Shown piece after piece: positions 12,280-54,100 of a stretch of 64,000 nt of DNA; within the stretch, counting starts at the first letter, position 1, and every line of letters begins with the position of its first letter. Under the pieces are notes generated by a model. The model saw only the letters and a program-made list of their open reading frames with translations, had not been told where the DNA came from and made no database searches. The position numbers and the translations under genes are program-made. The DNA is from Squalus acanthias (Eukaryota), in NCBI GenBank assembly GCA_030390025.1, contig JASTWF010000166.1, positions 682,001-746,000 on the forward strand. The letters run 5' to 3'.

Positions 12280-12660
12280 GGGGTGAATTTCCACAGTGGT
12301 TCTCCCGATCATCAGTTGTAACTTCAGATGAGCTGTGGACATCGGAAAAACAGCGTAGATGGCATTTACATCATTTTGAAGGTTTCCAGAGCTTTTCCAC
12401 TGAAGTTATGGTGTTTGTTCGGGAGAAACCCCCGAGGAAATTCACCCCAGGGGTACATCTACGCAAGGCTTCTACTGATCGTCCACCATAGCCTGCACCA
12501 GAAGAGCTGCAAAAATCTGGAAAAACGTTGGGGATAAATTTCCCTGGGCTCTCCTTCTCGTCCATCGTAACTTTGGCGGAAGAGCCGTGGAAACCCCAGA
12601 AAAGCAACATATACACCGTTTATATCGTTTTCCCATGGTTATGGTGGGCAAGGAAATTCC
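12280..12660. mobile_element. MITE cluster: one complete element 12280-12448 plus adjacent partial copies
   Basis: Perfect 13-bp TIR GGGGTGAATTTCC / GGAAATTCACCCC; related element at 55460-55586. Confidence 0.75.
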
Positions 12661-23936: not shown

Positions 23937-24143
23937 CTAAACACTTTCAAATGCATTTGTTGCTATTTCCGGATTAGAGGTTGCTATTTCTGTATGTTTT
24001 TGCTCTTCAGTTGCAAAGATCAAGGGCTGATAGCCAACATCATGACTTGGCTCCATCATTCCTTTCAACTCCACATTATGGATTTCTACATCAAATGTCG
24101 TCGAGTTGCTTTGTGATGCATTTTTTTCACAGCAAACCGAATC
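23937..24143 (-). CDS. PER2: PER terminal coding exon, 207 nt (DSVCCEKN...[10 protein letters not shown]...AFESV*)
   Basis: ttaatttag acceptor, phase 0, 68 codons plus TAG; DSVCCE aligns to PER2 ECVYCE, and FDVEIH resembles fish PER C-termini as I recall them. Confidence 0.78.
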   Translation of the reverse strand, partial: DSVCCEKNASQSNSTTFDVEIHNVELKGMMEPSHDVGYQPLIFATEEQKHTEIATSNPEIATNAFESV

Positions 24144-27100: not shown

Positions 27101-30100
27101 GCTATGATGCTTTGGTGTACTAATTCCCCATTTATTTCCCCAATATCTGAAGCACTGAGTGAGACCTATAACCTTTTTAAAAATTTTCTACAACTTGCTC
27201 CTACTATCAGCGGAGTTATATTAGACTATTTGGATAACTTTACATCTTGAAATGCAAATTCCACCATGAGACTTGTATGCAACAATTGTATGCAGGGAAT
27301 TACTGCAATGCCCGAAATCTAAATGTGGGGGTTAAGAATAAGTCCCAGTCATCTATCACAGATAACTAAAACATTTAGCAACTGAAACCAAGCCTAACAT
27401 CTGCTGGATTGCTGTCGCATGGTTGTAATATAATAAAGCATTAAAAAAAAAGTACATACTGGAACAGAACGCAACTGTATTCAGCACAGATAATTTCCAA
27501 AACACCTGCTGTAATTATCAAATTGCTTATCTTTTTGTGCAAGAATTATTCCATATCATGGAGCACAGATTGCTGGCTAACAGCTAATGTTGGCACAAAA
27601 GCAGACCATAAATCAGAAATCCATTTATAGTACATATAATTTACTTTATAACAGATAGCAGGGACTGATTTGAAAATGGTTCTCTTGTCTCTGGAGTTCA
27701 GAGGGTTATAAACTGCTTAATGTGGTGCTGGCTCTTTGATATTATCCAAAACCAAAGATTAGATTACTACCTTGCAATCGTCACCAGGTATCTTTTATTC
27801 TTTACAGAGAATTGCATTCAGAGAGCAATTAAATTATTTAACCATTGTCAGGAATAGAAACCCTATAAGCTCCCCAGGCAGATTAGTAGGACTGACATAA
27901 ACTCTGATCCTTAGTCTGCAGTTAATTAATCTCACCCAGGGCAAAGATTGGAGCACCCCTAAATGTGTCCAGGACCGCAGGGCCTGGAGTGGTGGGAATA
28001 AATGGGGAGGGAGGGGGTGGAAGGGAAATAAAATAAAAATCAGCCAGGTGTCAACTCCTATGCGGGGAGCCTGGCCTGGCATGTGTGCATGTCGGGTGAA
28101 GACGAGATCATGCGTGTGTCTGATGTCCTCCATGGTTGACTAGACTGCCACTCAATCACCGCCTAGCCTACATGCACACGGGTAGCCATGTTGATGAAAT
28201 AACAGAACTGCCAATGACCATGGAATTATACCACAGCAAGAGTCAGCACAGTCAGCAAAAAGGAGGAAATAAAAAACTGGAGTATAAGGAGCACTGTTTA
28301 ATATAGTGATGCGCCTGATACAGAAACCATGCTGCAAAAATAGTTCTGTCGAACATATGCAATTCCAATTTCTCATGCCCTCAGAAGAAAATAGGTCTTG
28401 CCGATATTTCTCCCGCCATTAGAGTACTGTTGTTCGAATATAGTGATGACCCTGCTGCAGTCAGAGACCATGGGGTAGATTTTCAACTTGCCACCTGAGC
28501 GTAAAACTGGCCTTGCAGATCGGCTGCCTGTTACAGAAACTGCCTGATTTTTATTTCGATGAAATCAACCGAAATAAAAACTGGGTGTTTTTCTATAACA
28601 GGCAGCTGATCCCGCAACACCAGTTTTAGACCTGGAAGATCTACCCCATGCTGCAAGAATAGTTCAGTTAAATATACACTATTCCAATTTCTCATGCCAT
28701 CAGTATATAAATTGGCCTTCCTGATATTTTTCCCTCCAATAGAGTAGCTATTTGAGATTCCCTTTTCTCTTACAGGCAACACACACTATTCCTGTATCTC
28801 TAGTGGAGAAATGCACTTTTCCAAACACAAAAGGTTTGCTTTTCACAGGATAGAGGAAGGAGGCAGGAAAGGTTAAATAAGATTATTGGGCAACTGTAGG
28901 CTACCAAATGGTCAACATTCTAACAAGTTATAAAAAGGAGATATCTATTTATTCCTCAGTCATCTCTTAACAAGTTTGTGCTTCAAAACTACCAGACAGA
29001 GGCAGCTTGGTAGCAAACAACAAGTAGCACCTCCTCTGACGTGACATCATTAAGTCGCGAACTGCACAGAATCCACCATTTTTGTTCAGTGGGTCAATTG
29101 AGCAGACTTTCAGATGATCACAGCAAGGAATTTCAAAATAAAATGTCAGTCTTGAGGCAGTCTCTACAGGTTTAAAATCATAAGCTATAGTAACATAAAA
29201 AACATTGGGATTAATGCAACGGTAACATTTAGGGTTAAGTGAAAATTGAGCAAAATAAGTTTCCCCTTAAAATTTTAGCATAATCGCAGACTGTCAGACA
29301 CACTGCTACCAGAATGGAGAGCTTTTTGAAATACCACTCTACAAAATCTCCACTTGGATTTTCAGCACTCACCTCGATGGAAGTTGGTAGGTCATCATGG
29401 TTCTCTCATCTGTATTCGCCATCGATAGCCAGACCGGGTCCTGGATGACACAATTAGTGAAGTGGACAATCTTCTCGGTGCTTGTTCTTATTTTTGACTT
29501 GTGGTCATTCTCAGAAGAGTCAATGCTTCCAAAATATTTGCTGGTGTTGCTTAGATGGCTACTTCCTAATAATGATTTAAAAAAGAACTCAATTTAGAGG
29601 AAAATAATCGTCAGTCAGTCAGTCAGACTAAAGAACAAAAACACAAGGAAACATAGAATTAATAAAGGCTATTCTGTCGATAAGGCTTGCTCCATCCACA
29701 GGAATATGCAATCTTCCTTAAAATGGAGTTTATCCCATTTCATCACCAAAGGGCAAGTTCTATAAAGCTTCCTTGGACAACCCAGCCTGCCCATATGCGC
29801 CATGGAGTATTTAATCAACACTTAAGTTAAAGGTTTAAGTCCATAGACTATGTAGGGAAACTGATCCCCGTCATGCCTCGTTTTTGGCCGTACAATTTCC
29901 GGGCGCAACCTCTCGCACCCGATTCCCCCCAGAAGTATGCCTTCTGACAAATTGGTAGCCGTAACTTCAGAGTGGCTGCAGCACCTGCCTAAAACAGGAG
30001 TTAGGCGGCTTGAATATGCCAATCAGGGACCTGGTTGTGACATGAGTCGGTAATTGGTTGAGAGATAGAAGGCAGAGCGTAGGGATAAAGTGAGCGGAAT

Positions 30101-33100
30101 CCGATTGGCAGGATGTGATCCAAGTTTGCAGATGACACTAAGTTGTGCAGATGGGAGCAGGAAATTACAAAAAGGGACATAGACAGATTAAGTGAGTGGA
30201 CAAAACAGTGTGTGAACAACCCACACACGGGTAGATCTTGACTTTGTGCGACAGTGTAAAACAGGCGATAGCGAATCCGCAGCCTGTTTTACATCTCTCT
30301 CGATTTTAAAAATCAGGAGAGTTGCAAGGCTGCCAACTCGCTTTTGCCCGTGTTACACTATTGCTCAAAGTCAAGATCTACACAACAGGCTCCAACTGTG
30401 AGCAGCAGTCAGAAAACCTACATCACTGAGGCTAATTCAGGGTTCCGAACAGTATACCCACTCTACAGCTCTAGCATTCTATATGGGCAAATCAGGAAAA
30501 GTAGGGAGCACTCACCAGGATAACGAAGAGAGATTTATTTCAGAAATTGAACTAACCTCTCAAGTCAGCTGAAAATGACTGGAGTTTGCACACAGGAAAC
30601 TGACAATTGTGTAAAAGTTTCTTTACAATAAAAGGAATAAATAACACTATTCTTTTCGCCCCATCCATAAACCCATCAAATGAACCTAGTAGTGCGGTAA
30701 TGTCTTCGCTTGTATTAATTTTGATTTGCAGCATGGTGGGTGGGGGGGGGGGGGGGGGGGGGAAAGAGAGGAAGTACTTCAAACTTGTGGCCATTTTTAA
30801 CCTTTGGTAAATCAAAGCAGATGTCAAAACTCTGCGACAGTAGAAACCATTATCTGTATGAAGTTACCTGTGTCAGTTCCTGACATTCCACAACCATTAG
30901 ATGGAGAACCTGAAGAACCCGAGGCTGTCGATCCGGCACTCCCTGAGCCTGATAGAGAATCCTGAAGTAACAGGTCCAGTAGGTCAGTAGAAGTGGAGTG
31001 AGCATCACTATTCTGGGCTTTAACAGGAGATTCAGCCTTTAGAAAACAAAGCAAATTAATTCAGAAATGTTTAGCCTACTGGCAGTCAATCATTTTACCA
31101 ATTATAATTTCAAACTGCGGCAATGACCAGAGTATTCAGTAGCAGATGCTTTGGATTGAATGGCACTGCAGTGTACAACATTCGTGAACCAACATGCTAT
31201 ACCAAGTAATGGGAGGACACAGGTACACCCACAATGTAAATTCTGCGACCTGTCTTTGCCACCTTGTAAGTTATCCTCCTGGGAACACAGTAGAGTATTA
31301 ACAGAGGCCTGGGTTTAGGGCACTCATCAGTCCACTCGTTTCAGGAATTGGTGGCAGGGGGAGAGAGAGAGAAAGAGAAAAAAAGGGAAGCAACAGGGAA
31401 AGAAAATTTGTGTCAAGACCCAACACAGTGAAGATGGTCAGATCCATTCAGTTCTGTGACCACTGTTAGCATACAGGGCAAACACTGGTGACGTCTGAGA
31501 CTACAGCAATAATGCAAAAACAGAATATATTTTCTCTCACACTTCAGGAATACGGTATCTCCCAGGAAGAGGAATCTTTTCATTTATATCCATTTTAAAA
31601 GCCAGAACAGTTAACTTTTTAAGGGTACTGATGTTATGAAGAAAAATGCTAAAACAAATGATTTGTCAAACGAAATGTGATGAGATTCTCCACTAGTTTG
31701 TATATAATGATGAAAATCACTGCCTTTTCCCCAACCCCAATAGCAACTTCAGCACTGATGGATAGTTTTATATAACAGCCCATTGTGCCTGAGGTGGTGC
31801 TCGCTCCACATTTCATGCTCTTGCGCTGTATTCTTCAATATTTAACCCGATGTATTTATCTTAATTCCCTTCTAAATGTCATGATCAACCCAGTTTCAAT
31901 AGCCACTTGCAGTGCATTCCATACCCTAATAACCCTTTCCATGTAAATTTTCTTCTAACCTCTCCCTTTATGCTTCTTGTACTAATTCCAATTCTATATC
32001 CTTTTATCCATAATTTTGCTATTCGGCCTCTCAAATCCTTTCATACTTCTGAACAGTTATTAGATCCCCCTCCTTAAATTATTCTGTCCCAGTGAATACA
32101 GTCCTAATTTTTCCAAGTCTCTTTGCGAGGAAAAGTGGACATCCAGCAGCCTGGGAGAACTATAAAAAAAAACAAAAAAAAAGGGACACAAAGAAAGTAA
32201 TGATGTTAAAAAATGGAGCAGATATCAAAGCTAACACTAAAAGTTTTTATAAATATATCAAGAGAAAGAAACAGGTAAAGGGGGAGGTGGGCCCATTAAA
32301 GATAGGTGCAGGTGATACTATAATGGATAATAAGGAAATGGCAGACTTGCTAAATGAACACTTTGTATCTTTTTTTTTTAAACAGTAGAGGCAGAGGACA
32401 AAACACAAGGGAAACCTAAAAATAAGTCAAGGAGGAACTTATTGTATTTAATACAATGAAAAAATGGTAATGGAGAAAATAAAAGGGACTTAAGATAGAC
32501 AAATCTCCGAGATCTGATGGTTTCCATCCTAGGGTATTGAAAGAAACAGGTGGGGAAATTATAGATGCATTAGTGCACAGCTCTCAAAATCTGGAATTGT
32601 GTTTTTGGATTGGGAAATCACAAATGTCACTCCAGTATTTAAGAAAGGAGGGAGAGAGAAACCAGGAAACTACAGACCTGTCAGCTTAATGCCAGTTGTG
32701 GGGAAATTACTGGAATCTAACAGCAGTGACAGTGTGACTGAGCACTTGGACAATATAAGTTGCTCAAAGAGAGTCAGCATGGATTTGTGAAAGGTAGCTC
32801 ATGTCTGACTAATCTAGGTGAATTTTCTGAGGAGTTCATGACATGGTGGACAGGGGAGTGTCTATGGATGTTGTCTATATGGACTTCCAGAAGGCATTTG
32901 ATAAGGTACCGCACAAGACATTATTAGCAAAAATAAAAGCGCAAAGAATTGGAGGCAGCCTTGAGGTAGGAAACTAAGTGTAGCTGTTAAAGGGAATGTA
33001 GTCTGATTGGCAGGATGCGACAAAGTAATGTTCCCCAGGGATCTATACTGGGACCTCAGCTTTTCACCATATTTATCAGTGACTTGGATGTAGGAAGAGA

Positions 33101-36100
33101 GAGTTGTATATCCAAGTTTATAGATGACACTAAATTAGGAGGCACAGTAAATTGTGTAGATAGAAACAGGAAGCTACAAAGAGACATAGGCCCAAAAATT
33201 AGTGCCGCTACGCGAGAGTGTGCACTGTGTACTCTCGCATATTCTGTCTCCAATTGCCGGTTTTCTGCATGCACTGCGCATGCGCTGAAAACCGGCACTT
33301 GGTGAATTCAAAAGGGGGCGGTTCCTAGGTGAACCGCGTGCGCGCTACAGGCTGCGCGCACGCAGTGCACTTAGTGCTTTGAACGCGCAGGTAAGCATGG
33401 AACATTTTAGACAAAGAAAGGAGGCGCAAGACCCTCTTTTAACAAGGTAAGTAGTTAATTAAGTATTATTTTGAATTTTTTTTAACAGGTATATCTTTTT
33501 TAGAGACTTTAAAGACAGGTAAGTTTATTTTTATAACTTTTTAAAAGATTTAAAATGTTTTCAAAAATTTAAATTTTTGTTTAAAATGGTTAATTTATTT
33601 AACTATACTTATTTTATTAATGTGATGGTTTTTTTAAAAATTTAATTGAGGTTTAGCTGTTCTTTTGGGGGGGTATAGATTCATAGCTTTCACAGCACTT
33701 ATGTGAAAGCTATGAATGAAAGATGGTGTGCTGCCATTGGCTCTAACTGAGTCACGTGATCCCACAGCTCGCACGAATTAACTACGCCTGTGGGATACGG
33801 AAGCCCTGCACAGCTGCTGTCCAGAACATCGAGTTCGTGCGAGCTCGGACTGAAAAAGCCAGCGCGCAGTGAGAGATCGCGGGGAGGCCTTACCCTCGCA
33901 CGAAGGCTCCCTCACGAATTTTTGGGCCATACAGATTAAGTGAGTGGGTAAACTGTGGCAGATAAGAGTTCAATGTGTGGCAGTGTGAGGTCATCCATTT
34001 TTTTTCCCTTTTCACACTAAATATAAACTCTGGGGAAAAAAAGGTTTTTAAATTGGCAATAAAACCAACTTTAAAAGGTCCTTAGGTATATTTATTTTCT
34101 GGGTTTCTCCCCCATCCCCCCAAAATGTAATACATCACATTTAACTTCACTGAATTATAAAATCTTACTAAACATTTTTTGATGACATTGCTCCTTTAAC
34201 ACCATTTTGCTATTTATATGCTCACTTTATCCCCACCGTCTTAATTCAGTTGTTTTATATTTAAACAGTGAGTGACAATGACATCTCCAGGAAATTCCAG
34301 CTTGTCGGATTGTACTAAGACAGGCATGGTAACAGAACTGAATTGAAGGAAAAGGCAAAGCCAAGGGTATGTGTTTATTAATAACAAGCACTTAGTCAAA
34401 GAATACCTCCGACAGGTCTGCTGAAGAAGAGGGCGTATCCAGAGCTTCCTGTGGGGCCCGCTAAATATAAACATCGCCCCAAAAAACTTTAGCTCCTTCA
34501 GGTTAGGTACCATAAACTATTCCAAGTACAGGAGTTAAAAAAACTTATTTGGTTACCTAATCATGCATCATCATATCTTTTTCAGTTTTTAAGATCAGTA
34601 GTCTTATTAAATCTGACCAAGATTTAATAAAGAGTCAAAGCCTTTTTCACCCTTTATTTTCTTTCACCCTGGGGCTAAAGATAGCTTTAGACATTGGGTC
34701 GGTGGGACTTTTGACTGCTACAGCCAGTTTCTACTTTTCTCTTAATTTTTAACCATCTCTGAATATCTCTTAATCTCTCCTGCCTTCCATCCTATCACAG
34801 ACCTTCCTTTTTGTTCTTTTCTCCCCTCCTCCCTTTCCCTGCCCCTGCACTTGCTTAAAAACCTGTTCCATCTCCAGCTTTTTCCAGTTCTGACGAAGGG
34901 TCATCGGCCTGAAACGTTAACTCTGTTTCTCTCTCCACAGATGCTGCCTGACCTGCTGAGTATTTCCAGCATTTTATGTTTTTATTTCTACTTTTCTCTC
35001 CTCTTTCTTCTACCTCTCTTCACACTACAAAACATTCAATGCCTATAAAATGAAAAAAATAGGCATTGAGATTTTCGGTGCCTTAAAAAAAAAATTAACA
35101 CAAGAATCCAATATGAATTGTAGGGAAAGATTTTATATGTTTTAAATTTCTAAGCCACTTACCAGTTCTGCTTCATCCTTTGCAATGATGTCCGCATTTG
35201 TAACGTTGGTACTGTTGCCCAACACTCCTCCATCAGCCATTGATCCATTACCACCTACAATTCCAACAAATGCAACTCCTGACGATTTGGGCATTTCTTC
35301 CAACTGCAGCAAGTTCAGCTGCAAAGGTGAACTGCACCTGGACTGGAATAACGGAGGGGACGCGTGGCCTTGTGGTCCTACAGATTGTGGAGTACAGCAA
35401 CACGACGGGGCACCTCGAGATTCTGAGGCACGTGCCTTCTCACCTTCTGCTGCTGGATCATAATGTGATGCGAACTGTGGCTGAGGCTGGAATGAAGTCG
35501 GTGTAGAAAATGGCGTTTGTGGCAGAAAGGCCAGTTGTGAAGGGAATGGCGACTGAGCCGCAAAAAATGGCCGGTGCACAGTGTCATTCATCTGAGGCAG
35601 TGCGTAATTAGGGAGCACGAATGCCACCATAGGAGTTACCAGGGGTGCAGAGTATTGTGGAGGCTGAGTGGTGCCATGAATACTCTGAGCATTTTCAAAG
35701 TTGGCCAGAGATGGGTCAATAACAGGAGGCATGCCTCCATGGGCAGAAAATACTGGCAGTTGATAGGTTGGCATAACTGTTGTAAACGGTATAGCAGAAT
35801 ATCTAGTCTGAGAGGCAGCAGATGGGGACCAAGAGGGAAGTCTATGATGGTTAGTGCGAGATGCAGTACTGTCAGATGATTCCTGCTGCTTGATGCGTTT
35901 TGATTTAAGCTTCCTATTCTTCCCACCTTTTTTGTACACAGGTTCTGCACGATTCCAGCCAGGTTTAAATCCTCGAGAGCCTGTAGTACGAGGAAACAGT
36001 CAGAAAGGTTGTCGGGATTCACTTCAAATTTTGTTTTGAACATTTTTACAGATGAAAATAAGCAGCTAAAGTGAGACAGATGGATTGACACAAATATTGT

Positions 36101-39100
36101 TGCCACAACTGTTGATGAAGTGGAAATTTTTAAATTGACATTATAACCCAACTCTTTCACCCTTACAGCTGTTGGCGACAGGAGACCGACAGATCTTCAA
36201 GAACTATTTCAGAAGCTTATTTTACTACAGCAACTTTTGGAAAAGTTGCGAGAACAGACAAGGCTTCATGGCATTATTGGTGCGTCATAATAAAAGGAGA
36301 AGGAAAATAACTCGTCAAACCGGGTGATTTAGTATTCCCTATCACCTTGGATTAAAAGATCAAAACACCACCATCAATATGAACATGCCTTCATATTAGT
36401 TTGAGTACTAGGATTGTTAGATTTAGTCTTCAAAAGTTTTATTCACAAAGGATGTGATTCTGGAAAAAAGTGTGGTCAAAATTTACCATACAATTTCAAA
36501 AACATACAGGGGGCCCATTTCCCCCGGATACTTTAGGCGCTAAAGCGCCTCTGGAGGTGGCCAAGATGGGGTATTAAGCTGAAACGCCGGTTTAGCCTGT
36601 GTTTAGCACAAGACACCATCTTGGTGAAGGAGGTGCCGCTTGCGCTAGGAACGGCTGCCTGGAGGATTGTTAAGGGGCTGACTGCCAATTACATTGCCTG
36701 CGAGTACTCATTAATGAGGCTGCACTTTGGTGGCTAGCACTTGAACTAATGTCCTCTCCTAACAGCGACCAGCTGACTGGGAGTAAACCAGTCGTTGCTG
36801 AGGATTTCGAGCACTACTTAAGGTATATCACCTTTTACTGTTCACTTGCTGCTGGAGGTTTGAAGAGAACTTTTGAAACACATTGGGCGACTTTCTGGGT
36901 CACACTTCCCCAACACTCTTAACAACATTTACTCTGGAAATTCTCCGAGGACTTCACCTAAAAAGAGTAAGTGCTGTGCTACTCGACCTTATTGGAGTTA
37001 CCAAGAGAAAGGGAGTGCTTGGTCATGGGCATCTTGCTAGGGGACCCCTTGGTCTGTAGGAGAAATGGGAGGCAGACTTGAGGCCAGGCAGAGCAGCACC
37101 TGCTGCTGCAGGAGAGGGGGACAGGAGGGCAAGGTGGACTCCTTCCCCCTGCAGGTATAGGACATCCCTCCTCCTCTGGACCTCCTCCACCAGGACCCCC
37201 AATGCCACGTCCAAGAACCTGTGCGCCCTCTCCCTCGGTCCCTGAACCATCCTGAAAATTGCTGCTGTCAGCCAGAGCACTCCACACCTTCAGTGGAAGT
37301 GGGTGCGTGGAGCCCACGTATACTGCTCCACAAAAATGGTGTCTAATCAGCACACGATTGCTAAACCTGCAGGTGTCTGTTTCAGCACCTCCAGGCAAGT
37401 TCAAATTATGGTAATCAGCAATTAGGCCCAAAATGGCATACTAGAACCAGACTTTCAAACAGGCGTGTCTTATTAGCACAGCACCCATTTAGCACCTGTT
37501 TTCACCCTTTCACCAAAATAATCCCCACAATTTATGAGCGGCATGGGGGGTCCCCGAGATACAAATTAATTTGTATCAAACTTTTTTTTTTTTTAAAACT
37601 GTACCAAATATATTACATTGCAAATTGTTATATGATAATGGGGCAATTTCCATCTATTACAGTCAAAACATCCATGTTCTCCGACATTAGCTACACTTTT
37701 TGTACCTCTAAAAAAAATTGATTCATAAATGAGATATATATTGTATTTGATCTATCATATGCAGTATTTTAGCGTACAGAAAGTGTAACAGTACATTGAG
37801 CCTCATCCTTCCCCTTCTCACATACTACATCAACAGCTCTTATACTGTATCCCACTTTGCACTTTTACAACTGAATGGAGGAAATAAAAGGAAGCCGTGT
37901 TTGTAGGTTCTTACCATAATCTCCTGAACATCCTTTGCATTGTTCGTGCAAATATGATTTGCAAGGAGCTTCAAATGTTTTTAGTTTACTTAGCTCCTTG
38001 AACTTGCTCAAGAATATCTGCTCTTCTTTCTGTGTATGAGCAGCTAAAACCTCTTTGGTGAGGCCAAGTTTCTTGTACGGTTCCTTTTCCTGGTTCACAG
38101 AAGGTGCAGTGGTGACCAGTGTAGCAGATGCCACGTTCTCTGCTGGATCAGCAATGCCAAGCCCATCCTCCAACAGGATTTCTATCAAATTTCAAGTTTA
38201 GAATTGTAGTTTAAGAAAGTGCAACATTTTTATATTATGGCAAACATATGCAAAAAATCTGATTTAGCAGTGGACAAAAGCTTAGGTTGGTGCCAAGTCA
38301 TATAAGCCAAGTATGATCTTAACTAGGGTCCCAAGGTCGCAGTACGGTTGCTTCAATTAGTATCAGTTCTCCTGAGCTGGGGTGGAGGGGAACAATAGGC
38401 ACCCCTGCTACTAAGTGCGTATAATGTGTGTGTGCGTTATGATGTATCAAATATAGCTACGGTGGCTTATAATGTTTGAATACCCTGAAACATTCATTAC
38501 TTCATGAAGAGTGGCTAACTGGAAGAGGTGGGCGGTCAACATGAATGGAACTTTACCCTAGAAGGAGTTTGTGCCTTTAGAAGGGGGAAGCAACTGGAGA
38601 TTAAAAAATAAACTTCACTTAATGTTACAAAAACAATTTGCATTTATATAGTGCCTTTAACATAGTAAAATGCTCCAAGACACGTCACAGGAGCGATTAT
38701 CAAACAAAAGAAATTGGAAACGGACGATTGCTAGTCTATCACACTGTAGAACTAAAATTGATTTTGACAAAATGATGCTTAAAGCAGTTCATTACTACAT
38801 TTTTAACTTGATAAAGTTAGTTCAGTTTTGAAAATGCTTTTTATTTAAAAAAAGTAACATTTTTAAAAAGACTCACAATTAGGAATGATTAAACTGTCCC
38901 ACCCCTACAGTTTGAGGATTTGTGTTTTCTTTCCATGTTTCAAAGTTTGTTTAGAGTGTGTGGAAGGATTACAACAACAACCTGCATTTATATAGCACCT
39001 TTAATGCAGTAAAACGTCCCAACTCGCTTCACAGGAGCATTATCAAACAAAATTTGACACCGAGCCATATAAGGAGATATTAGCTTGGTCAAAGAGGTAG

Positions 39101-42100
39101 GTTATAAGCAGCGTCTTAAAGGAGAGAGGGGTAGAGGCGGAGAGGTTTAGGGAGAGCCTTCCAGAGCTTAGGGCCTAGGCAGCTGAAAACACAGCTGCCA
39201 ATGGTGGAGCAATTAAAATAGGGGATGCGCAAAAAGGCCAGAATTGGAGGAGCGCAGAGGGTTGTAGGGCTGGAGGAGGTTTCAGAGATAGGGAGGGTGA
39301 GTCCAACAGGAACTGGAGGGCTGAATTAACTTAGGCAGGTGAACATGATCACAGAAACATCCAAGTTTTCCGCATGCCTCTCGATTAATGCTACATTGGT
39401 GCAGCTCCTCACACTGCTTTGCTCGGCAATTCTGACAAGATGGCTGCACCAATGAAGCCATATATTTTCAGTTTAAGGAAGGGGAGGGAATGCTTTCAAA
39501 AAAATAGTAACTGGAAAGAAATATGAAATTTAATCACAATTTTTTAAAACTGGTCCTAATGGCAAGACTATTAAAAAAATATTTTCAGGATTTGGGGCCA
39601 AGAGGGAAGTACCAACACCACTCACCAAAAAAAATCCATGTGATTAAGTCTAGATCTGAATTAAATATGAAGGTTATGCGATTACACACCTGCAGGTAAT
39701 TATGACTTTGGGTGATAAAACAGGTAATATCAGATCAGCCGCCCATTATACATCTGTCAATGGAATAGAAATCAGGAGATATATATAGGCTGACTTATCC
39801 AATATCACCCGTTTTACACTATCGCCCAAAGTCAAAATTATATCCTTAAATACTCAGAATGCCTTTTTCTCTGATCATGTCATTAGCAATCTACACATGA
39901 ATGCTACTAGGATGTAGGTTATCCAAACAATTTTCTTGTACTTTCTACTGATACTCTTTAGTAGGTGAAGTGCAGTACCTGCATCTGCTTGTAGTTTCTT
40001 GTCTCCCACGTGGACAATAGTGCTGCTGTAACTGCACTGGCTGGTGACACTTGCTGCCTTTCTTGGTAAGGAGAGTGGGGTCAGGGGAGTGCCAACAACT
40101 GCTCCAGTGGGCACCTCTTTTGTAGACTTAAATGGAACTCGGACAGTCTGATGTGGTAATGGCGATGCTTCTGCCAAAGTAACAGAAGATTCAATATACA
40201 ACTGATGAAACTTATATTTATTTTTATTTGGTTGCCAAAGTTATTATTGAGTAGTATCAATTAATGTGAAGAATTCAACAGCTGTAGCTTTTATGTGTCT
40301 TCCTTGCCATTTACAATCTTAAGCGAAGTATACATATTTTGCATGATCATTTTTGCCTGCAGAAGCTGGGAACTCCAAGGAAAGTTCTGCTGCAGGTCAA
40401 GTGTTCATAGTTACACTTTTATTGTAATGGATGTCCTTGTGGAACAAACTTTGATTTTGTGACAGGAGCCATAAACAGCTTGGGGTTGGTATACAGGCAG
40501 CAATAGAAATGTTGGTATCTGGGGTAAATATGCATTAATGATACTTTTAAGGCTAAAATACTGCAGAAACCTTGTGGCACCATCACCCTTGCCGATTAAA
40601 TTATTGACTTTCAGTAAAGTCAGAAATGTCAAATTATTCTACACATACTGTACGCTTGCTGGCTCATTTTCAACGAGACAAAGCATTTCAAAGTCAGTTT
40701 AGGTAAAGATCAAAATAGTATGAAATACCTTTTGCCACCTGCACGTTATGAACTTTTTGTTTGTCATCGTCAGATGCTGATGAAGACTCACACTTCCTTT
40801 TCACAGTGCTTGGAATACTGTAGCTGTCCAAATACCTGCATATGCAAAGAAACAAAAATCAACTATGCTACAAGTAAAGACACAGGTCTATTTATATCCC
40901 TCCCCTTTAAAATAGTCTATTGCCACTATACAACCCCAGCTCCCAAAAAGGGGTAATGACAAAAGTGTGGCATTTTATATGACTGCTTATTTGGTGAAGG
41001 AGCAATAACTGCATTCAGGTCTTATAAGGCACAAATGTGTCAGTGTAGCTCAATGGTAGCACTCTCGCCCAAGTCAGAATGTTACAGGTACAAGCCTCAT
41101 TCCAACCCTTGAACACAATCTAGGCTGATGCTTCAGTGCAGCACTGAAGGAGTGCTGTATTGCCAGAGATGTCTTTCAGGTGAGACATTAAATGGAAACC
41201 ACATTTGCCTGTTGGATGTAAAAGATCCCATGATACTTTTTCCCCCAAAGAGCAGATGCTCGTCCAGTATCCTGGCCAACATTTATTCCTCAGCCAACGC
41301 CACCAAATCAGACTAACTGGCCATTCATCTTACTGCCATTTCTGGAACCTTGCTATGAGCAAATGGGCTGTTGCACTTGCCTATAATACAACAGTGACTA
41401 ATTCATTGGCTTTGAAAACTTTGGGATTCCCAAGGATGTGGAAGGTGCTAGCAAGTTTCTTAGACAAAATTTTCTTTAGCTTTATCTGGTACTCCTTTAT
41501 AGTTTCAAAACTAAAGTTGGCCACATGCTTAATGTTGGGAAAAGCCATTGAAATCAACAGATTTTAAAAACTTTTTTTTGGCATTAATGCCACACAATAT
41601 AAAATCCCTTCACTCATTTTTGTGATGGCATTATCTTTGACAATGTCATTGAAAGATACTGTAGGATTTGTTAATACAATTTTACTGCAACTTGTACAAC
41701 ATGGATTTGTTGACCTGGGCAGTATATCTAAAAGAAGGGTGTTTTTGAAAGTATGCAAATAGGCTACAACAGCCCTTAAAAAATGAGACCCCATCTGCAT
41801 ACCTATGGGAACACAACCACTAGTCCAGGGTCCCACTCACCTTATTACACTGTCCAAGCAGTTGATTTGCTGATAACAATATACAGGCTGTTCCTTGCAT
41901 TTCGACTCATCCACAAGCATGTTCTTTACGACACTGCTGGGCGCAGCACCCTTGGATGGGCTGACTTTAAAATCTTTGGTCTGGCCGCTTGCCTCTTTAT
42001 GTTGTGTTACTGCAAAATATATGTATTTTTAGAATTAGAACAAGCTATTTCCAACATGAAGCTTAAAAAGAAACTGTAACATAACTGTAGAGGTGAAGTG

Positions 42101-45100
42101 ACTAGACCCTTTGGCCAAGACGCAGCCTAATTGGGTTATTTTCAGAAAAATACCCCTCACTTAAAAAGGAAAAAAAAACGATTTAGCTAGATCGACAGTT
42201 TCGTAGATGCTAGAGATTTAAGAAACATTTAAACAAATTATTTAACATATACAATTTAATATAAATTCCTTTATATTTCTCCAAGTTACAAAGTGTCCCT
42301 AAATTGAGTTTGAATATCCCCACTGGCACTTTCGCAATACAGCTGCTACAGGATGTGTGAATATGTGCGATCTTTCTGATCTACATGCTTGGGGTAGGAA
42401 CACCATTTCAAAAGAATCCAAAGCTAAGAAATGTCAGTTTAAAAATTAATTTTTTGGATTATAGGCAAACCTGTGTTAAAAATGAATTTGAAAATGTAGG
42501 TAGTGACTTGTATTGTGGTATGGCTCCTGGGATGCCAGCTGTTTTTCAGTACATTATCCAACTGACCGTTCTTCATGGTCAGCGAGTACTGACAGACTAT
42601 TCAACCATCATGATGAGTGCAGGATTGAGACGTTTAGCTACAATTTTCAAAAATTCTGCTTTTAAATAATTTAAAGTACTATGTGCAACCTGGTTAATAC
42701 TCTATTTACTGGAAATGCACTCCCGGAGGTTACACAGCACATGTACTTTTGGAATAGCATTCACATTTTCACAGATCTGAAGATCTTTCCCTATAGTTTG
42801 ATTTTTTTTTAAAGCAAAAAATGGGGAGAGGCGAGGAGAAATCAGAAATTATTTTATGTATGATGTTTTTTTCCTAATAGAGTTCAGGTAATGACACTTC
42901 CTATTTAAAATGACTGTCCTTCAAATACGGGTCATGAAACTGTAGTCCCTCATGTTGTCAAGCGTACTTCCTTCCTCCTATTCTTGCTTAATGTTGTTAC
43001 TCAGGAAAAAAAATCAAAAATGACAGGAACTGAATGTTTACACACATTAGGAAAGTACACTTGCATTCAAGTAGAATTATATTTCTGGAATATTTAAAAA
43101 TAAAACGGCAGCATTTTCACATTGTTGCTTTTACTGTGGTTTTCCAAGTGACCCCAAACTACTGCAGCCCGCCCACATAAACTGAATAATGTTCCTCCAC
43201 GTCAACTCTATGCAGCTACCAGACATGAATAGCTGCATCTGCAACAGCTGTGTTTGGACTCAAACACATGTACAAAATCAAGATGCATTGGAGTCAAAAT
43301 TATTTCAAGCCAATTTATTACGCATGTCTAGATAATGACTGCAAAATAATTAAGCCCATTACCAGTTTTGTGTCTGCGCTTTGATTCACTCTTTACTCTG
43401 CTCTCAATGAATATTGTTTGTCCTTGATTTTTCACCAGGTGCACATCCTTACAAATTTTCTGAAACGTCATCTGAAAGAAGGAAACAAAGGATTGAAGGC
43501 CAATAATTTTCCTCTAAAATTACTGAATTTTGTATAGGAGCAGATTCTGCTTTTGAGAGATGACAAAACTACACAGAATGAGACAAAAACACTTTTCAAA
43601 ATTCAGGATGTACAAGATTGAAAACTCAAAAACTAAATGAAAGCTTTGATGGTACAGAATCATTAAAGCACACTGTACTGTGTAACATTTTTACATTGCT
43701 TGAATTCAACTGGCAAATAGTATTTTTAGCTCTACTGATCAACATTCTAATTAGAAGGCGTCAGCCTTGTCTCAGTGGGTAGCACTCTCGCCTCTGAGTC
43801 AGAAGGTTGTGGGTTCAAGCCCCACTCCAGAGACTTGAGCGCATAATCTAGGCTGACATCGCCGTGCAGTACTAAGGGAGTGCTTAACTGCTGTCTTTCA
43901 ATGAGATATTAAACCGAGGCCCTGTCTTCTCTCTGTAAAAGATTCCCTTGCACTATTCGAAGAAGAGCAGACGAGTTCTGGCCAATATTTATCCCTCAGC
44001 CAACATCAGTAAAACAGAGAATCTGGTTAGGTATCTTGTTGCTGTTTGTGGGCAAAATTGGCTGCTGCAAGTCCCTTCATTGCAGTGACTACACTTCAAA
44101 AAGTACTTCATTGGTTGTAAAGCGCTTTGGGGCATCCTGAGGTCATGGAAGGTGCTATATAAACGCAAGTCCTTTCCTTGCAAGTCCTTTATAAGGCCAT
44201 CATGACTCATGATTAGACATCTCTACAATTCTAGAATTTTACCTAGAACAAATATTTCCATTACTACTTAAGCTACATTAATTTAATTGGCTTTCTGATT
44301 GACTAGTCTTTAGTTCTATTTGCTTAAAGTGCCGAGGTTTCAGGCTTGTAGATGGACTATGCCAACAACTATTTTTTTTTGCTGACTGCAAATATTTATA
44401 ATTAGTAAATAACATCAAAAGCATTATTCAATTCCCACAAAACAGACATTAAATGAATACTAATAGCTTCCTATTAAAACACTTCAATTTTGCATAGGTG
44501 GTATAAACCAAATGCTCAATGAGGAACCAGGAAATAGACACGGCATTTATTTCTCTTTTTGATGAAGAACTTGCAAGTTCTTCCTCAGATTTAATACAAA
44601 TAATGCACTCTGACCCATAACAAACCAGAAGGTTCTAGGTCTGACCCCAGTCTGAGCTAAGTTAGCGGATATCAGCTAGGATGGCAGCTGTGTTCTCTAA
44701 ATTGGCCTCAATGAGTCTGGGCTGTTGGGCTATGGGGGATGGGGGGGGGGGGGGGCGGTTGACGGCACAGGGAAGTTGTCACACATGGTCATTATTCAAT
44801 GGTTTCTGCTGGAAAATGCACATGTGGACACTGGATTGAAACCAATAGTGGGCTCAGCACTGATTTCCTCCATCGTAAAGTAGCTTTCCAATGCTCAAAG
44901 CTCAAAATGAAGATCAGCTGCTTGAAGTACCACAGAGCTGACAGAACCTATGTAACAGTACCCGAGCCAAAGTCAACACCATCAGGAAGGGCAGGGAGCA
45001 GAGAATTAGGGGAAAATACTTGCATTCTACAGTTCCTCGCTGAGAAACAGTTTTATATATTTGCACATGTAAACTCAATCCTTTTTCACCAACAGTTCAC

Positions 45101-48100
45101 GTAATATATAAAAGTTCAATTAGGGCCCAATTAAAATAATTGGGCTAGACTTTCAATGCCACCCAAGCAGATTGGCCGCCCGTAATAGAAACTGCCCGAC
45201 TTTAATTTCCATTAAAATCAATGCATATGTAAAGGGCTGGCCAGTCCACAACACTAGTTTTATGCCTGGGCGACAATCTACCGTATTTTGTTTGCATAAA
45301 CTAGGTCATAACAGAGATCAAACTTACAGGCTTGTCCCAGTGGCTCCCTTCAGTGATGTTGCCATTACTATCGCTGGAAGAGGCTATACTCATGAACTGT
45401 GCATGAGATCCATTACTGCCCAAACTTCCGTACCCACTGGAACCATTGTTGTAAACTGGCTAAAATGGTAAGGATAAAAGTTTTAATAGGCATTCAATGT
45501 ACTAATCAGACACAAATCATGTTTACATTAGAATACACCATGAACAATGTGAATTAGTTATACCTGTAGCAAGAGCTGATGAATCTGTTCAGTGATGGTC
45601 TGTATTTCAGGATTGAGCGTCTTCACTTCAGTCAACCCCGGAGTAACAAATACATCTTCATTCAAAGGACCCCTACATATTTTGAAGGTTAAGGGGAGAT
45701 TTTGTGCAGTGAGCATCCTTTTTATATCATTTAAAAACACTTTTCTGTAGATTTCTGATGCACGTGATTTCAAATACTTAACATTTTGAAGGTTATTTTG
45801 TTGTTATAAAAGTCATCGTTTGACGGTTAAGCATTCATAACAATAGACCACTTCTAATTTGGTTACTTGGATACTAGGACAGTAACTCTGGTCAGAGCAA
45901 CAGCGGTCAGAAACAACAATCGCTCCGTGATTTCTGTCCCTAACTTCATTCCAAATGGAAGAAACCCCGATCAAACAGCTAAACTATACTCCAAAAAAAT
46001 CATTTATTTTAAAGCTAGTTTAAAAAAAAAACAAGTTGATTATCTAACAGTTGTGATACATGGTCATTAATTCAGGAAATTTTGGGATTGATAGATGAAA
46101 ATTTTCCTTCCACATTCTCTCTCTATCTTCCTCCTGCTTCTCTTGCACCCAGCCACAGCTTACAATTTCTGCAACCCCTGGAGTGTCTGACCAACATCCA
46201 TGTGCTATAAATTGCTCATAACCCAATTGAAAACAATAATGCAGGGGAGAAAAAAACCCACACTTTTACACTGAAGCAGGAGACGCAAAAAAAAACCCCT
46301 AGGATTCCATTTAAAATAAAAAGTCCAAATGTCAAGTTCGATCAAATCATGAACATGTTCGTAAAAAAAGTAAAACTACTTACGTTCGGACTTTGTGCCT
46401 TCCAATTATGAAGGATACTTTTCTGCTCCAAGGATTAACAAAGCTTGACCAACTGGTGTCAATTGTGATGTATTCACCATTCTGAGTGCAGAATCGGACA
46501 GGTGAATGTTCAAAAGGTTGTCCAGCATGTTTCAGTACTGAAAGAATGAGGAACATGTTAAATAAGACTAAATTAAACCAATTTCCTTACGTCTGGTAAC
46601 TCAATAGCCAACAATTAATTAACCACTCAAACCAGAATGCTTAAATCTTGGAGTGATTGCATATTTTTGCATCATTAAAAACCTCATGGAACTAGCAATG
46701 TAATTCTTACTAAGGTATAACCTCCTTCACCAACCATTTAAAAAAAAAACAGTAGTTAGAATCAAAAAAAATGGTACAAGAGTTTAATACTAAACTAAAA
46801 TTTGACCGTATCTACACTGACTGCATGAAACACATGTAGAGTAATGACTATCCTTTCTTGAGACACTGAATTCATATAGGAATAGGAACAGGAGTAGGCC
46901 ATTCAGGCCCTTGAGCCTGTTCTGCCAATCAATTAGATCATTGGTGATGATCTGAAGCAAAATATCAATTGAGTTTTACTTCATTACGTCTCAATATAGC
47001 TCCTTTAGAAATTCAAGCTATTAGTTCTTACTATTGGAAAGAACGCATTGCTGCTGGTAGCAAATGAGTCCCATAGTCGATGTGGGAGGAAACTACATGG
47101 TACAATAATCATACATGGATTCGGGAAAGAAGAGACTTGATGAACTGAACTGGCCTTTTCTCATGTTTCTTAATTGTGGACACAACTGCTGCCAGCAGTA
47201 ACTTGACTTTCCAGCCTCTGGCTGCAAACAAATTCCAATTTTTCCATTTACATTAGCACCAATAATAAGTAGTCATCACTGGCCCCCAAAATGGGGAGAG
47301 GTTACTTAACCCAACCCACATAGAAAAGGGGACTGGCACCATAAGCCAAGACATGAAAAGTTTGAAAATTGGTCAGTCTTCCCCATGCTGGTTTAATTTA
47401 ACATCTTGGCCCTCTCTTCCTGTCCTCTTCAGTTCATCTTCATCCCCCAAAAAATCAATACACCAGCCTGATCCAATTGAAATAACATCCACATAGCTCA
47501 TGCTGCAGTAGGTATCTCTGGTCTGTTCCTTAGGAAAAATTGCTGACATCACTATCAGATTTATAGTAGCCAATCTGTTCCTAGGCAAGGAGAAAAATCA
47601 TGCTTGCCAATTTTTTTTTTTTAAATAGCATCAACAAACTTACTTTTCTTATGAATGCCTAGCATCAAAGGTTGATCATCAGGGTGCAGATGCATCAGCA
47701 CAGGTGTTCCTATGAGGTCCTGAGGCAAATAACCCAACAGAGGGACAGCCCTTTAAAAGAAAATGTAACATTCTGATATTCTGCAAAATGCACATCTACA
47801 ATAAGATTTTTTTTTAAGTGTAAAATGTCAAGTCTGTGCTTTGATACACAAAATAATGGACAAAAAGCACACAAACTGGGCAAACAGAACTGTAGTCAAA
47901 AACCCACTAATTTTGTAGATAATAACAAAGGAAACACCAATTTGGTTGTCATGGTAACATTTTGTTTCCCCAAGTTGGATATTTACCACCTTACTTCCCA
48001 TCCCTCAAAATCTATTCACCACCTGCTTGTCCCTCCTATAGGTCACAGAGTGGTGTACTTCATTGTTAAATTCAAGGAAGCGGGAGAAGGCAACTTAAAG

Positions 48101-51100
48101 ACGACAATTTGGCTTGGGGAAGAAAAACGGGAGGCAAAGTGAGAAGTGAATGAGGAAACCATTTTTTTTTGGAAATGATGAACAGTTCCGAATTATTCAA
48201 ACTGGTATTTTGTACCATTCTCATTAAAAATGTAAACATTGCATTTACACCATTTGGCCAGTAGGGGACATTGCAAACCACATACAAAGGCAGGTTTTCA
48301 AAACATTTTTTGGTCACCGAGAGGATAACTACTTATTTAGAATTAATAGTTTATCGGAACTTTAAAAAAATATGGGCTTGAAATTTTAGTAAAGAAAGCA
48401 CCAAGCTCTCCTTAAGTTGTTGTAAATGGTTTTCAAACCAATATGCATGTAAGAAATCTTAAGTAGTGCACTCATACCTCTCATCAACATCCTGGAACAC
48501 GCAGCTGGGTGTGTGAGTCGTGGTAAAAACCCGCTTATCATGAGGGATTCTTGGTGCTGAAAAAGGGTTATTTTTTTCAATAAAATTGGCAAAGACATAA
48601 AAATAGACATTGCAATTTTAAAAAGTTAACAATGTTGTGTACAATTTTGCTATTTGAGTCCACTTGGCTAAATTAGCCTGGGATCAGACCTCCATTATTG
48701 CAAAACAGCTTTCTAATGGCATCTAGAAACTAAAACTCTTAAAATATAATGCTCAACCCAACAATTCACATCTCCATGGTTTTACTCAAACACACTTGAA
48801 TACATAGTTAATAGACATGTCAAATGAAGTTTGTGTATATAAAAAAAATTCATACAAAATTTAAAACCTACTAAAACTTTAGAAATCCAAAATATTAATA
48901 ATTATTTATTTACTGTGAACTGAAAGTAATCTCACTGCACAAATATTTACAAATTATGGAATGTTATCTATCATTTTGGTGAGAATAATGTCCTCTATAA
49001 TCCTGACTGATAACTGATACATTTGCACTATACAGTCTTGATAATATCAAACTGCGTTATATTGAAGATCTTCCTATAAATCCAAGTTTCGGCCTGGTCC
49101 CATTCTCTAGAATAAAATTGTACTGAATTTTACTTTGATATGTCAAAGTAAAATCTCAATATATCAAAGTCATTTGTGGCTTCACTCAACTGTACGGACC
49201 TGTTTCTCATCCGATCCCATTCCCCTGGAGTATCTAGCTGGTCTCCCAACTGTCCTAGGTTGCTGCAATCAGTCGGAACAGTCAGCACTGCTTTTATGCG
49301 TCACTGGGTTTGTTGGCTGGAAAGTGGTGGGCCCAGCAGCATACAAAACAGATTTTAATAAGGGTCACTTATTGGTGGGTTTATCCATCAATAAGGAAGC
49401 AACAATGAGGCATTGTATGGGCTGTAGGAGACCAGGCCAGGAGCAGAAATCTCGATACAAAATTGGTGTTCCCTTGGACTTTAAAATATTGGAGACTCCG
49501 CTTTGCATACATTTTTGGAAATATAGATTTGTTTTATCTTGCTCTATAAAGTTGTGCAATTTGAACATTCATGGCTTTGTTTACATGTGGTACAGAGCCA
49601 GCAGTGAGATAATGAATGTATTTCTTTTTTATTCGTTCCTGGGATGTGGGCGTTGCTGGCAAGGCCAGAATTTATTGGCCATCCCTACTACTGCCCATCT
49701 CTACTCGCTCATATCTATACACATGATCAAACGCTATATGACGTATCGGTCTTGTGCTCCCAGGGTTCTGGATATGCCATGTGAAAAGTAACTGGTCAAA
49801 GTTGAATAAAATGGGTTACAAAATGTAAACTGATAACTAATAAATATTCACTTCTCTCAGGAAATTATTTTGGAGGAGGAGTGAAGCTGGCTCAGTGAGC
49901 TGAAGGAACTTTTCACCTTCCACATGTTCTTATATACAACATGTTATATTAAATCAGAAGACTCTTACCTTCATATCCCGAGTGCACCCTTTCAGCAAGC
50001 AACAGACAGCATAGTTGTTCATCATCATCTTCAGATGCTCGCACCTTTGTGAGATAAGGCGTCATACGAAAGGGATAGTAATGGATCCTGCGAACTCGCT
50101 GCTGGTCTCCACTGTGAAACAGATGCCAGCAATAAGTCCAGAGCAGGGGCCCCCAATATAATATGCACCATGAAAAGCAAGCACAGTTCCTCAATAGTAT
50201 AAAATACTCTTTAGTAGGAGGGAAGCCAAATTCTTCATCTTTAGCAAACTATAGCATTAACTGTTAAAATATGTACCATCATACACATTGTATTATTGCT
50301 AGTAAACTGTGGATTGACAATGAATTTGATGCATTACATCAGGTACTCCTTCGGTGCAGATATCATGCACCAACTACATGGTGTATCCTGGCTAACACCT
50401 ACCCTTAGAACCAGATTATAACCAGGTCAGTGAGACACAGAGCAAAAGGGGGAACAAGTACCAAAAGAAAACTACCCCCACCAACTTCTGAGCATATACT
50501 TAAGAGTGAGAAGGGGTTGAAACAGCATGTTAAACCACAAAAACAAAGCTCAAGTGGTTTGTCATCTCAATTCCAAAACAGTCTTTCAATTTCCAATGCT
50601 ACAATTCTCTTGTACATATAGTCCAATAATACATACCAAAAACAGCCAATATCACTAACAGTTTTACTTAAATTACACTGGCTTTGAATGGCAGTCTAGC
50701 AACAAGTAATCACTGCATTATATCACTAGCCAAATACTTTCTCGGCAACGACATGGTCGTCTGTTCAGTAAATAAAGTTTTTACTGCAACTTGAAAAATA
50801 TATTTCAATAATGCTTCTGTCGATCTTGAAAGGGAATTGTTTTAACTGTTCTCTCAGACAAAAAAAAAACAGGTCTGGTAAATGAAGATGCCAATGCAAC
50901 AAAGGGCCAAGGGATTTACAGTACAGTAGGACGATACAAGACCTGGGGGGGGGGCAGAAGAGAATAAATAAGGAACTTTGTCTCATCTACTAAACCCTGA
51001 AGCCTGCCTAGTCAGATTCAAACTAAAATAAAAAGCACAAACATACTCATGCACATTTTATTAATTTTAATAAAGCATTAGAAACACAAAATATGTAGAA

Positions 51101-54100
51101 ACTGTGGAGTACACTCACAATGTAAGGACATGAACAAATGAAGCCCTTAATTAAGTTGTCAATTTTGAGACGAGATAAGTGCAAACAGAACAAAACTCAA
51201 AAAGGGTATGATAGCAGATTAAAAAAGATCACACTACTCATTTACTACTCTGAGGTCACGGAAGTGTTCTGCTTAATGGACGATCCCCTTCTTGTGAATG
51301 TAAGATAATAGAACCGCACCTCCCCCTTAGTGTGGACCCCAAATCTTTCGGATTCAAGGTGCCCTTGTATTATAAATGCAAGTGCTTCAGCATACACGAG
51401 CTTTGGAAATCTTTGTAGGTAAACAGTACTTGTACCGATCAGCAGGTAGTGGAGGGAGTTTTAGCACTGAACTTTCATGTCGCACCAATTCCAAACCCCT
51501 TAAACCCAAAAAGCCACGAGTGGACATGGTGTGAATATTTAAAAAGCAAAATCGAAGGAATGCCTGGACGATTCTCACATGTTAAACCTATTATGATAAA
51601 TCTAATTCTCCTTTTCTCCACTCAGATCACATCATTGTCTATAAGATTTATTCCCAGTCTTCCTTCGCACACAAGCCTTTCCCTCCTTAGTTCACTAAAC
51701 TCCAGTCCTTCCAGTACTCACCTAATGCGGCAGAAGAAAGACTTTTCCTGCACACAGTCCGGAGGTGATGAACCTGAAAGACAGTTACAGTCACAAATTA
51801 CGGAATCACACTAAAATTGCTGGAAGGGGAGACAGGAAGGAAAGATTGTCTAAAAACTGTGCTGGTATAGTGAAGCTGCACAGAATATTCATTATTAATT
51901 AATAAAGTCTTTTGTGAAGGTCTAAGTGACCAGGTGCAAAAGATCAAATCGAGAATAGTCACATTTGGCAACAATTTTATCATCTGGTCCAATATTCTTT
52001 CCTGTGTATTTTGTCATTGAACCAGGTGTTACCAAGTTTAAAAAGAACACATTGGTAGTTACTTCCAAATGAAAAAAAGAAACACCAACATTTTCCAGTT
52101 GAGCTGTGGGGGGGGGGGGGGGGGGGGGGGGGCCCCCGAGATCCCCTGGTTTATAGGAATCAGGAGAGGCAGCGACACTGGCACTGTTGTATTCGGCTTT
52201 TTAGTTAATATGGAAGTAATACAAGGCCAGGAGCAAGGCTTCTGTATTAAGCTGAATGCAACAGTGCCACTGCCTCTCCCACTCTTGTCACCAAACTCAA
52301 AATTTCATGACCCATAGCCATTCACTTCCCATTTTGCTGCGAAGGAAGAAATTCCTTGGCGGAAGCAAATTCCCTGAAAATTTCCATGGCTGTAGAGATG
52401 AGGCACGTGTGGAAATGAGCAAACAGGTTAGATCAGGTGATGAGCAGGTGTAACATCGGGCTAATGCAAGTCACCTGTTCGAGGTTGGGAAATATAGGGG
52501 CTGATTTTCATCGCCTCTGGCTGGTGGGAACGGGGCAGTCATGAGATCTAAATAGCAGTCAATCATGTACCCCCTGACTTCTGGGTCTCTACCATTTTGG
52601 TGGGGGCCTTGAAATGGGGTCCACTGTAAATAGGCAGGAGCCTCATTAACTTATGAAAATTGGTATCCTACGCCATCAAAAAGGACCCCGTTGCAATTTC
52701 TAAGAACCAATGGACGAGTGTGCACGGCACATGATCCCCGCTGGTATTTGGCATGGGCCAGCTATCCTTGAAGGGACCACTGCAATCCACTCAAAGAAGT
52801 GGGAAATAAACATTTGTAAATAATTTTTGTGGGGCCAGAAGGAGCCCTTTCCCTGATGCTCGACCATCCCTCAATCCCAGATCCACCCCTCCAACTAACC
52901 TGCAAAGGCTAGGCTCCGCAGGGAAGCTGCTAGATTTCCCACCAGCCTCTCTGATCAGCAATCAGCTCGCCGAAGGAATACTAATGAGGCCTGACCGTGA
53001 TAATGGTTCGACCTCGGACCGCTTAAATTGGGCGGCCGATTCCCGCTTGATGGAAGCAGTCAATTGAAAATCCACCCTATGGAGTGCAGTTATGACCAAT
53101 CTCTGCAGAGACAAACTGCACAAACGGACAAGGAGACAAACTAACTCAGGCCTCAAGTATAAAGCATTATTAAGTTGATCTTAATGAATAATGCTAGTAT
53201 GATTTAATTGTGCACAACTCTAATCTATACACTTGGAACTTAGATCAATGGTGGTATCATATTTGGAATAAAAAGTGTGCAATTTTGGGCACCCTATCAT
53301 CAAGACGACATTGATAAGGCTCAGAGAAGAGTGACTAGGATTACTCTGGGATTTAGGAATCGAAGCCAAGAAAATTTAGCGCATGATCGTAGCTAAAGTA
53401 GACAAAGCAGCCTATGTGCCTGCGTCAGTACAGCATTTAGAAGACACGGGTTCAAAATGATCAAGCAAGACAAGAGATTAGATGAAACCTCAACAGACAA
53501 GTGAATACACAGAACAGACTCTCAAAGCTGCTAAAGCTGAATTAACTCCTCAATAATAACTGGATAAATAGTCATTTGGGAATGACGTTGAAGATTACAA
53601 GAGAAAGGACAGACAAAATATATAGAATCACATAGAATGTACAGCAAAGAAACAGGCCATTTGGCCCAATTGGTCCATGCTCCACACGAGTCTCATCCCA
53701 CCACACTTCCTCTAACCCTATCAGCATAACCTTCTATTCCTTCCTCCATGTGTTTATCTAGCTTCCCCTTAAATATATCTATTCTATTCACCTCAACTAC
53801 TCCATGTGGTAGTGTGTTCCACATTCTGACTACTCTCTGGGTAAAGAATTTACTCCTGAAATCAATATTGGATTTACTGAATTCCCTACTGGATTGGTTT
53901 AACCCCATTTAGAAACTTAGGGCTAAAAATTTGTTTGCCCCCAAAAACAGGTGCGGAGATCGCGATATGTGATCACCCTGCGCCCGTTCAAAGGAATTCA
54001 GGCAGCACGCTAACTTCATGCTGCCTGCTGATTAGCATGATTGTGACGTGCGGCTGAACACTCAGCAGGGGGCCCAAGTTTGTGCGAGGCTAGCACCAAT

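Follow-up and report, generated by a model that had tools for sequence, protein, structure and literature searches.

The clock protein PER2 has a five-serine FASP cluster that has been called highly conserved and in which a single change displaces human sleep by hours. In human PER2, the kinase CK1 slowly primes S662 and then phosphorylates the downstream serines, and the phosphorylated FASP product in turn acts as a CK1 inhibitor and shields the degron (bioRxiv 10.1101/2022.06.24.497549, available in part). According to the same partial text, three phosphoserines (3pFASP) fill the kinase's Site 1, its active site and also Site 2, and the 3p, 4p and 5p forms bind it in 1, 2 and 3 registers, respectively. 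It also reports that S671A and S674A cut the half-life of PER2::LUC, that in U2OS cells deletions leaving priming intact shorten the period less than those disrupting it, and that in human peptides fewer sites speed priming via relieved product inhibition. The determinants of priming are Lys at -3, Glu at -1 and, above all, Val at +1; when either -3 or -1 is changed to alanine in human peptides, the apparent KM of priming goes up about 10-fold, and an S662A peptide is rescued by a Val placed at +1 of its second serine (S662A/L666V; PMC12709424, partial text). S662G stops all downstream phosphorylation (PMC11223080, partial text).

A four-serine FASP cluster in a shark per2 gene

We analysed a stretch of 64,000 nucleotides from Squalus acanthias, here called the window, whose minus strand carries the FASP motif at 40060..40022. 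The codons read AAG GCA GCA AGT GTC ACC AGC CAG TGC AGT TAC AGC AGC, which gives four serines in SxxS register (40051, 40042, 40033 and 40024), with a Thr at 40021 directly after them, and a block 3 residues shorter than the usual cluster. An earlier note on this DNA had placed four such serines at 40022..40060 and an intact SSGYGS degron at 45424-45441, in a gene that it took for PER2. All of this proved correct; the strand, which the note had not given, is minus for the motif and also for the degron (45441..45424).

The PER2 identity is borne out by tblastn of the Pristiophorus (sawshark) PER2 against the window, which returned 21 pieces from 63278 to 23946, mostly 84-97% identical, as well as by the names of the best matches and by the tree described below. 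The best matches of the window's large exon were all shark proteins named PER2, at 76-90%, with Pristiophorus at the top (90%). As expected of PER2, degron 1 lies before the PAS domains and degron 2 (SSGYGS) after them. Because its exon is part of a per2 gene matched by 21 pieces, the motif is not a chance occurrence. A comparison of the FASP exon with PDB sequences gave 0 matches. The features of the locus are as follows.

23946..63278, minus strand: per2 coding exons, as 21 tblastn pieces (first 82 residues of the query unmatched)
59779..59844, minus strand: exon end with DNPSTSGC, the start of degron 1, intact, the rest being in the next exon (PMC11223080 Table 1, partial text)
45424..45441, minus strand: degron 2, SSGYGS, intact (mouse sequence: PMC11223080 Table 1, partial text)
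39979..40170, minus strand: 192-nt exon carrying the FASP cluster, of phase 1/1, preceded by AG and followed by GT
40022..40060, minus strand: four-serine FASP cluster (five serines in chimaera and in the majority of bony vertebrates)
40058..40060, minus strand: retained Lys three residues ahead of the first serine (-3; human K659) (role: PMC12709424, partial text)
40052..40054, minus strand: Ala at -1 (human E661 position), where 154 of 161 five-unit records and Heptranchias have Glu
40049..40051, minus strand: first serine, AGT, the putative homologue of the priming serine (human S662) by outgroup codons and gap placement
40043..40048, minus strand: retained Val (+1), then Thr; the junction of the 9-nt deletion fits best within the Val codon or directly behind it
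40019..40042, minus strand: downstream serines 40042, 40033 and 40024 (human S668, S671 and S674) and Thr (human T675) (numbering: bioRxiv 10.1101/2022.06.24.497549, partial text)
41840..42010, minus strand: exon ending in the first CK1-binding motif, intact (tblastn)
37913..38182, minus strand: exon with the second CK1-binding motif, intact (tblastn)

We take the motif in exon 41840..42010 to be CKBD-A, and that in exon 37913..38182 is presumably CKBD-B. The shark region thus resembles that of mammalian PER2 (human S662-S674) in its exon, in Lys at -3, in a priming serine with Val at +1, in SxxS spacing and trailing Thr, in both degrons and in both CK1-binding motifs, which flank the cluster as in the canonical arrangement. 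It differs in having four serines in SxxS register instead of five, Ala instead of Glu at -1, Arg at -4 (also found in chimaera) and no hydrophobic residue after the second serine.

The earlier note had allowed that the 9-nt gap might be an assembly error. The window contains no N, and contigs span the motif with 0 gaps in all four runs compared over 39700-40400 (4 studies, 3 species labels); these are 4 of the 23 runs listed for the stretch, and are represented by contigs, not raw reads. Over the motif the contigs cover 39812-40400 (run X1), 39873-40400 (X5), 39846-40101 (X6) and 39979-40172 (X10). X1 and X5 share one species label, X6 and X10 have two others, and X1 is possibly the window's own source. 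The 3257-nt contig of X10 agrees with 39979-40172 at 0 differences, the agreement ending at exon edges as in a spliced transcript, although that X10 is RNA is a guess. Gap-free contigs and the match across species refute an assembly error, and the occurrence of the short form in 18 named shark and ray species (see below) refutes a species-specific change. The chance that the short block is an error or an allele private to the source genome is, therefore, negligible.

Several other features of the window were noted. A short high-copy repeat lies at 39790-39841 and 39715-39760, in the intron that immediately follows the FASP exon; contig depth on the repeat reaches about 96,000, versus 12 on the exon. 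At 40306, also in an intron, the window has G where all three DNA runs have T, reflecting either allelic variation or one wrong base in the window. Long open frames on both strands at 1795-17063 look by eye like pieces of retroelement reverse transcriptase and endonuclease, and coincide with GC-skew flips at 4-18 kb. No neighbouring gene was recognized outside per2.

Distribution and origin of the short cluster

The earlier note had proposed aligning the exon with its counterparts in chondrichthyans and bony vertebrates. A comparison of records revealed the four-serine form in 18 out of 19 named shark and ray species; in the 19th, the whale shark, the gene model is without the block and hence uninformative. 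One window-type peptide is common to ten shark species, while seven rays and skates read KAAS(V/I)(T/I/V)S. The cluster of Heptranchias is KAESVTSRCSYSS, with Glu present at -1 (KAESVTS); the other 17 of the 18 short-form elasmobranch species have Ala there. Chimaera, in contrast, has five serines in 8/8 records. The 197 non-chondrichthyan records, which include many isoforms and unnamed fragments, were in part ranked by likeness to the short form and so do not give species frequencies, comprised 161 five-unit, 21 short and 15 block-less records. The net loss of one SxxS unit that the earlier note described is, thus, real when measured against chimaera and these 161 of 197 records. Lamprey PER is five-unit, as are those PER1 records in which the block is present. 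Five serines together with Ala or Gly at -1 occur in 5 of the 161 five-unit records (coelacanth, platypus, caecilian and tilapia), and the combination of a short cluster with Ala at -1 was confined to elasmobranchs among the records examined.

In a tree of 48 proteins (FastTree, midpoint root, with the window represented by its closest relatives), elasmobranch PER2 formed one clade with support 100 and chimaera PER2 as its sister, apart from the clade of PER1, PER3 and lamprey proteins, as befits PER2 orthologues. Given the spread of the four-serine form and the position of the five-serine chimaera as sister group, the 9-nt in-frame deletion is, on these sequence data, an event that arose once, after the chimaera split and before sharks and rays parted. 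That parting took place roughly 300 million years ago or more. As a shared character, the deletion cleanly sets sharks and rays apart from chimaeras.

Four-serine clusters were also found in teleosts: KADSVVSQCS in cypriniforms (20 records, in a cluster that includes loach 'period2b'), KAESITSQCS in Dallia and KAESATSQCS in Engraulis (anchovy). The tree requires at least 3 changes involving the short form, and all the teleost cases fall in one per2 duplicate clade, within which the anchovy, on a long branch, is unplaced. As in teleost per2b, shark PER2 has a net loss of one SxxS unit, but the teleost junctions differ from that of the shark, the acidic residue at -1 is kept and the origins are separate. 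These separate origins indicate that a four-serine state can be tolerated. Among the same four-serine, per2b-type proteins, degron 2 is decayed in Dallia (SGGYGR) and none is recognizable in anchovy; in Danio aesculapii it reads SSGCGS. Decay of degron 2 in teleost duplicates suggests that the switch may be relaxed there.

The PER2 model of Rhincodon typus breaks just before the cluster (LSLP to KILLED) and drops the FASP region, which may be an artefact of the model, an assembly fault or an internal splice site. Twelve PER2 records (turtles, birds, gar, paddlefish and a teleost) omit the whole FASP exon in frame, joining the flanking exons; if real, they may represent a FASP-less splice form of PER2. 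The window's FASP exon would likewise be skippable, since it is 192 nt long and of phase 1/1.

Identity of the lost unit

The earlier note proposed that the ESV priming unit had been removed, and gave in brackets the alternative of an internal unit lost together with a change of Glu to Ala. Serine codons belong to two classes, AGY and TCN, which no single base change connects. Outgroup DNA came from 3 loci identified by a pattern scan of metagenome contigs, all of them five-serine PER exons; judged by peptide they are a bird-like PER2, a PER1-like gene and a teleost-like per2, and none is chimaera. In 3/3 loci an AGT codon encodes the first serine, with a GTN Val codon next to it, and a TCN codon encodes the second. 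In the window, AGT encodes the first serine and GTC comes next. When a 9-nt gap was slid along the three loci, the best gap started 13-15 nt after the Lys codon, with 8 mismatches at codon positions 1 and 2 and 40-42 in all, versus 15 and 49, respectively, for the placement that removes ESV. Val follows the first serine in 161/161 five-unit records and the second in 0/161, where the residue is Ile (99 records), Phe (36), Leu (24) or Tyr (2). In Heptranchias, loss of the second unit needs no further upstream change.

Codon class, gap placement, the kept Val at +1 and the KAESVTS of Heptranchias argue that the unit lost was most likely V-S-x, which contained the second serine (human S665), and that the priming serine was spared; loss of the priming serine was rejected on these grounds. 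The same evidence does not support the main proposal of the earlier note and favours its bracketed alternative, and we infer that the change of Glu to Ala at -1 was an event separate from the deletion. No direct or inverted repeat that explains the deletion was found at the junction in the present sequence.

Deletion of the ESV unit would have left the cluster unprimable, a natural equivalent of the advanced-sleep-phase allele S662G. The window's KA and ASVTS can indeed be derived from the KAESVASVTS of the PER1-like locus minus ESV with 1 amino-acid mismatch, and for that locus taken by itself, removing ESV is the placement with the fewest amino-acid changes, but not the fewest base changes; codon class and the placement of the gap in the DNA are contrary to it. 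The codon class of a serine can switch, as shown by the TCG codon of the third serine in the PER1-like locus. The acidic residue at -1, which is gone in the window, is kept in Heptranchias. Val after the second serine, often present in PER1 and also in lamprey PER, so that S-V-T alone is not decisive, is missing from PER2 in all 161 records. Moreover, even a surviving second serine would be primable, judging from the rescue by S662A/L666V (PMC12709424, partial text), because the shark has that Val. Deletion of the ESV unit is, then, very improbable.

By comparison of sequences, the short cluster is neither a natural S662G-like allele nor special to this genome. The absence of the priming serine that characterizes S662G is not what codon class, gap placement and the survey of records indicate; the priming serine appears to be kept and an internal unit lost.

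Predicted consequences for the CK1 brake on PER2

The shark shares with human S662G and with priming-disrupted CRISPR deletions a change in the same cluster and the same predicted direction of effect; unlike S662G, it keeps the priming serine and its +1 Val. The nearest laboratory counterparts are the U2OS clone P2E17-25, with an in-frame PER2 deletion that leaves priming intact, and the E661A peptide. As in the clone, whose short period is milder, a priming serine is followed by fewer downstream serines. With the E661A peptide, whose apparent KM is about 10-fold higher, the shark shares Ala at -1. Unlike P2E17-25 and E661A taken singly, sharks combine both changes, and do so fixed in nature.

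The old in-frame 9-nt deletion cut the FASP serines of PER2 from five to four in sharks and rays. Extrapolating from human biochemistry, Lys at -3 and Val at +1 would keep the first serine primable by CK1, which would then still proceed along the cluster, and Ala at -1 would lower the affinity of priming and, as a result, slow it. Four phosphoserines would fill the three pockets of the kinase in two registers, not three, giving weaker self-inhibition, and a weaker CK1 brake would tilt PER2 mildly toward degradation. On balance we lean towards this reading, that is, a cluster still primable but forming a slower and shorter CK1 brake, with a mild shift to degradation predicted. By analogy with human PER2, the shark brake on PER2 breakdown would likely be weakened, not removed. 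The direction suggested by the earlier note, 'biased toward degradation', is plausible when human data are carried over, and the bias would be mild.

The net effect of the shark changes on the switch could also be nil, because three phosphoserines fill the pockets and fewer sites speed priming. The same deletion would then be neutral, with four serines and the trailing Thr being enough for a CK1 that is tethered to PER2, so that its lower affinity for the peptide would be of no consequence and the switch would work as it does in humans. 3pFASP already occupies the kinase's Site 1, its active site and also Site 2, and the rate of priming rises with fewer sites, yet human cells with downstream serines removed show a shorter period and half-life (all from sources available in part). 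The CK1-binding motifs are intact in the shark, the short state is ancient and, on the tree, the short form was gained or lost independently at least 3 times; however, all the other short forms found belong to a redundant teleost duplicate, and the serine count is kept exactly in 161 five-unit records. Sharks have daily rest-activity rhythms (PMC11213526, partial text), which is compatible with neutrality; no usable value of the free-running period of an elasmobranch was found in the literature searched. Clade-wide fixation, Ala or Gly at -1 with five serines elsewhere and recurrent teleost per2b clusters point to tolerance of such changes. Neutrality is, thus, a serious rival to the weakened brake, although one that we would bet against.

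Several rays (Pristis, Hemitrygon, Hypanus and both Mobula species) have Cys in place of the final degron 2 serine (SGYGC), while SGYGS is kept in Narcine, Rhinoraja and the sharks. The change may offset a weaker FASP brake.

Ensembl counts for chimaera are 0 for Per1, 1 for Per2 and 0 for Per3 (PMC11457068 Table S1, partial text). Of 2270 matches to coelacanth PER1, the best 120 include 117 with names, none of them a chondrichthyan PER1, though these 120 already reach PER2 paralogues at 1115 bits and so do not show that sharks lack PER1. It is possible that PER1 and PER3 were lost, or are poorly assembled, in cartilaginous fishes. A wider suggestion, which we make tentatively and regard as rather doubtful, is that evolution tunes the vertebrate clock through how many serines FASP contains. 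Sharks and rays would then have a doubly weakened brake (four serines, Ala at -1) in a PER gene that is possibly the sole or principal one they have, with compensation at other sites such as the SGYGC of several rays. The literature searched, which covered few subscription journals and left alignments in figures and bioRxiv supplements outside, held no description of an elasmobranch four-serine FASP.

If the shark and ray form is neutral, the fifth serine would be dispensable outside mammals. A whole vertebrate clade with one serine fewer and an E661A-equivalent, together with the teleost forms, provides natural alleles with which to study the influence of serine number and of priming strength on the half-life of PER2, on period and on temperature compensation.
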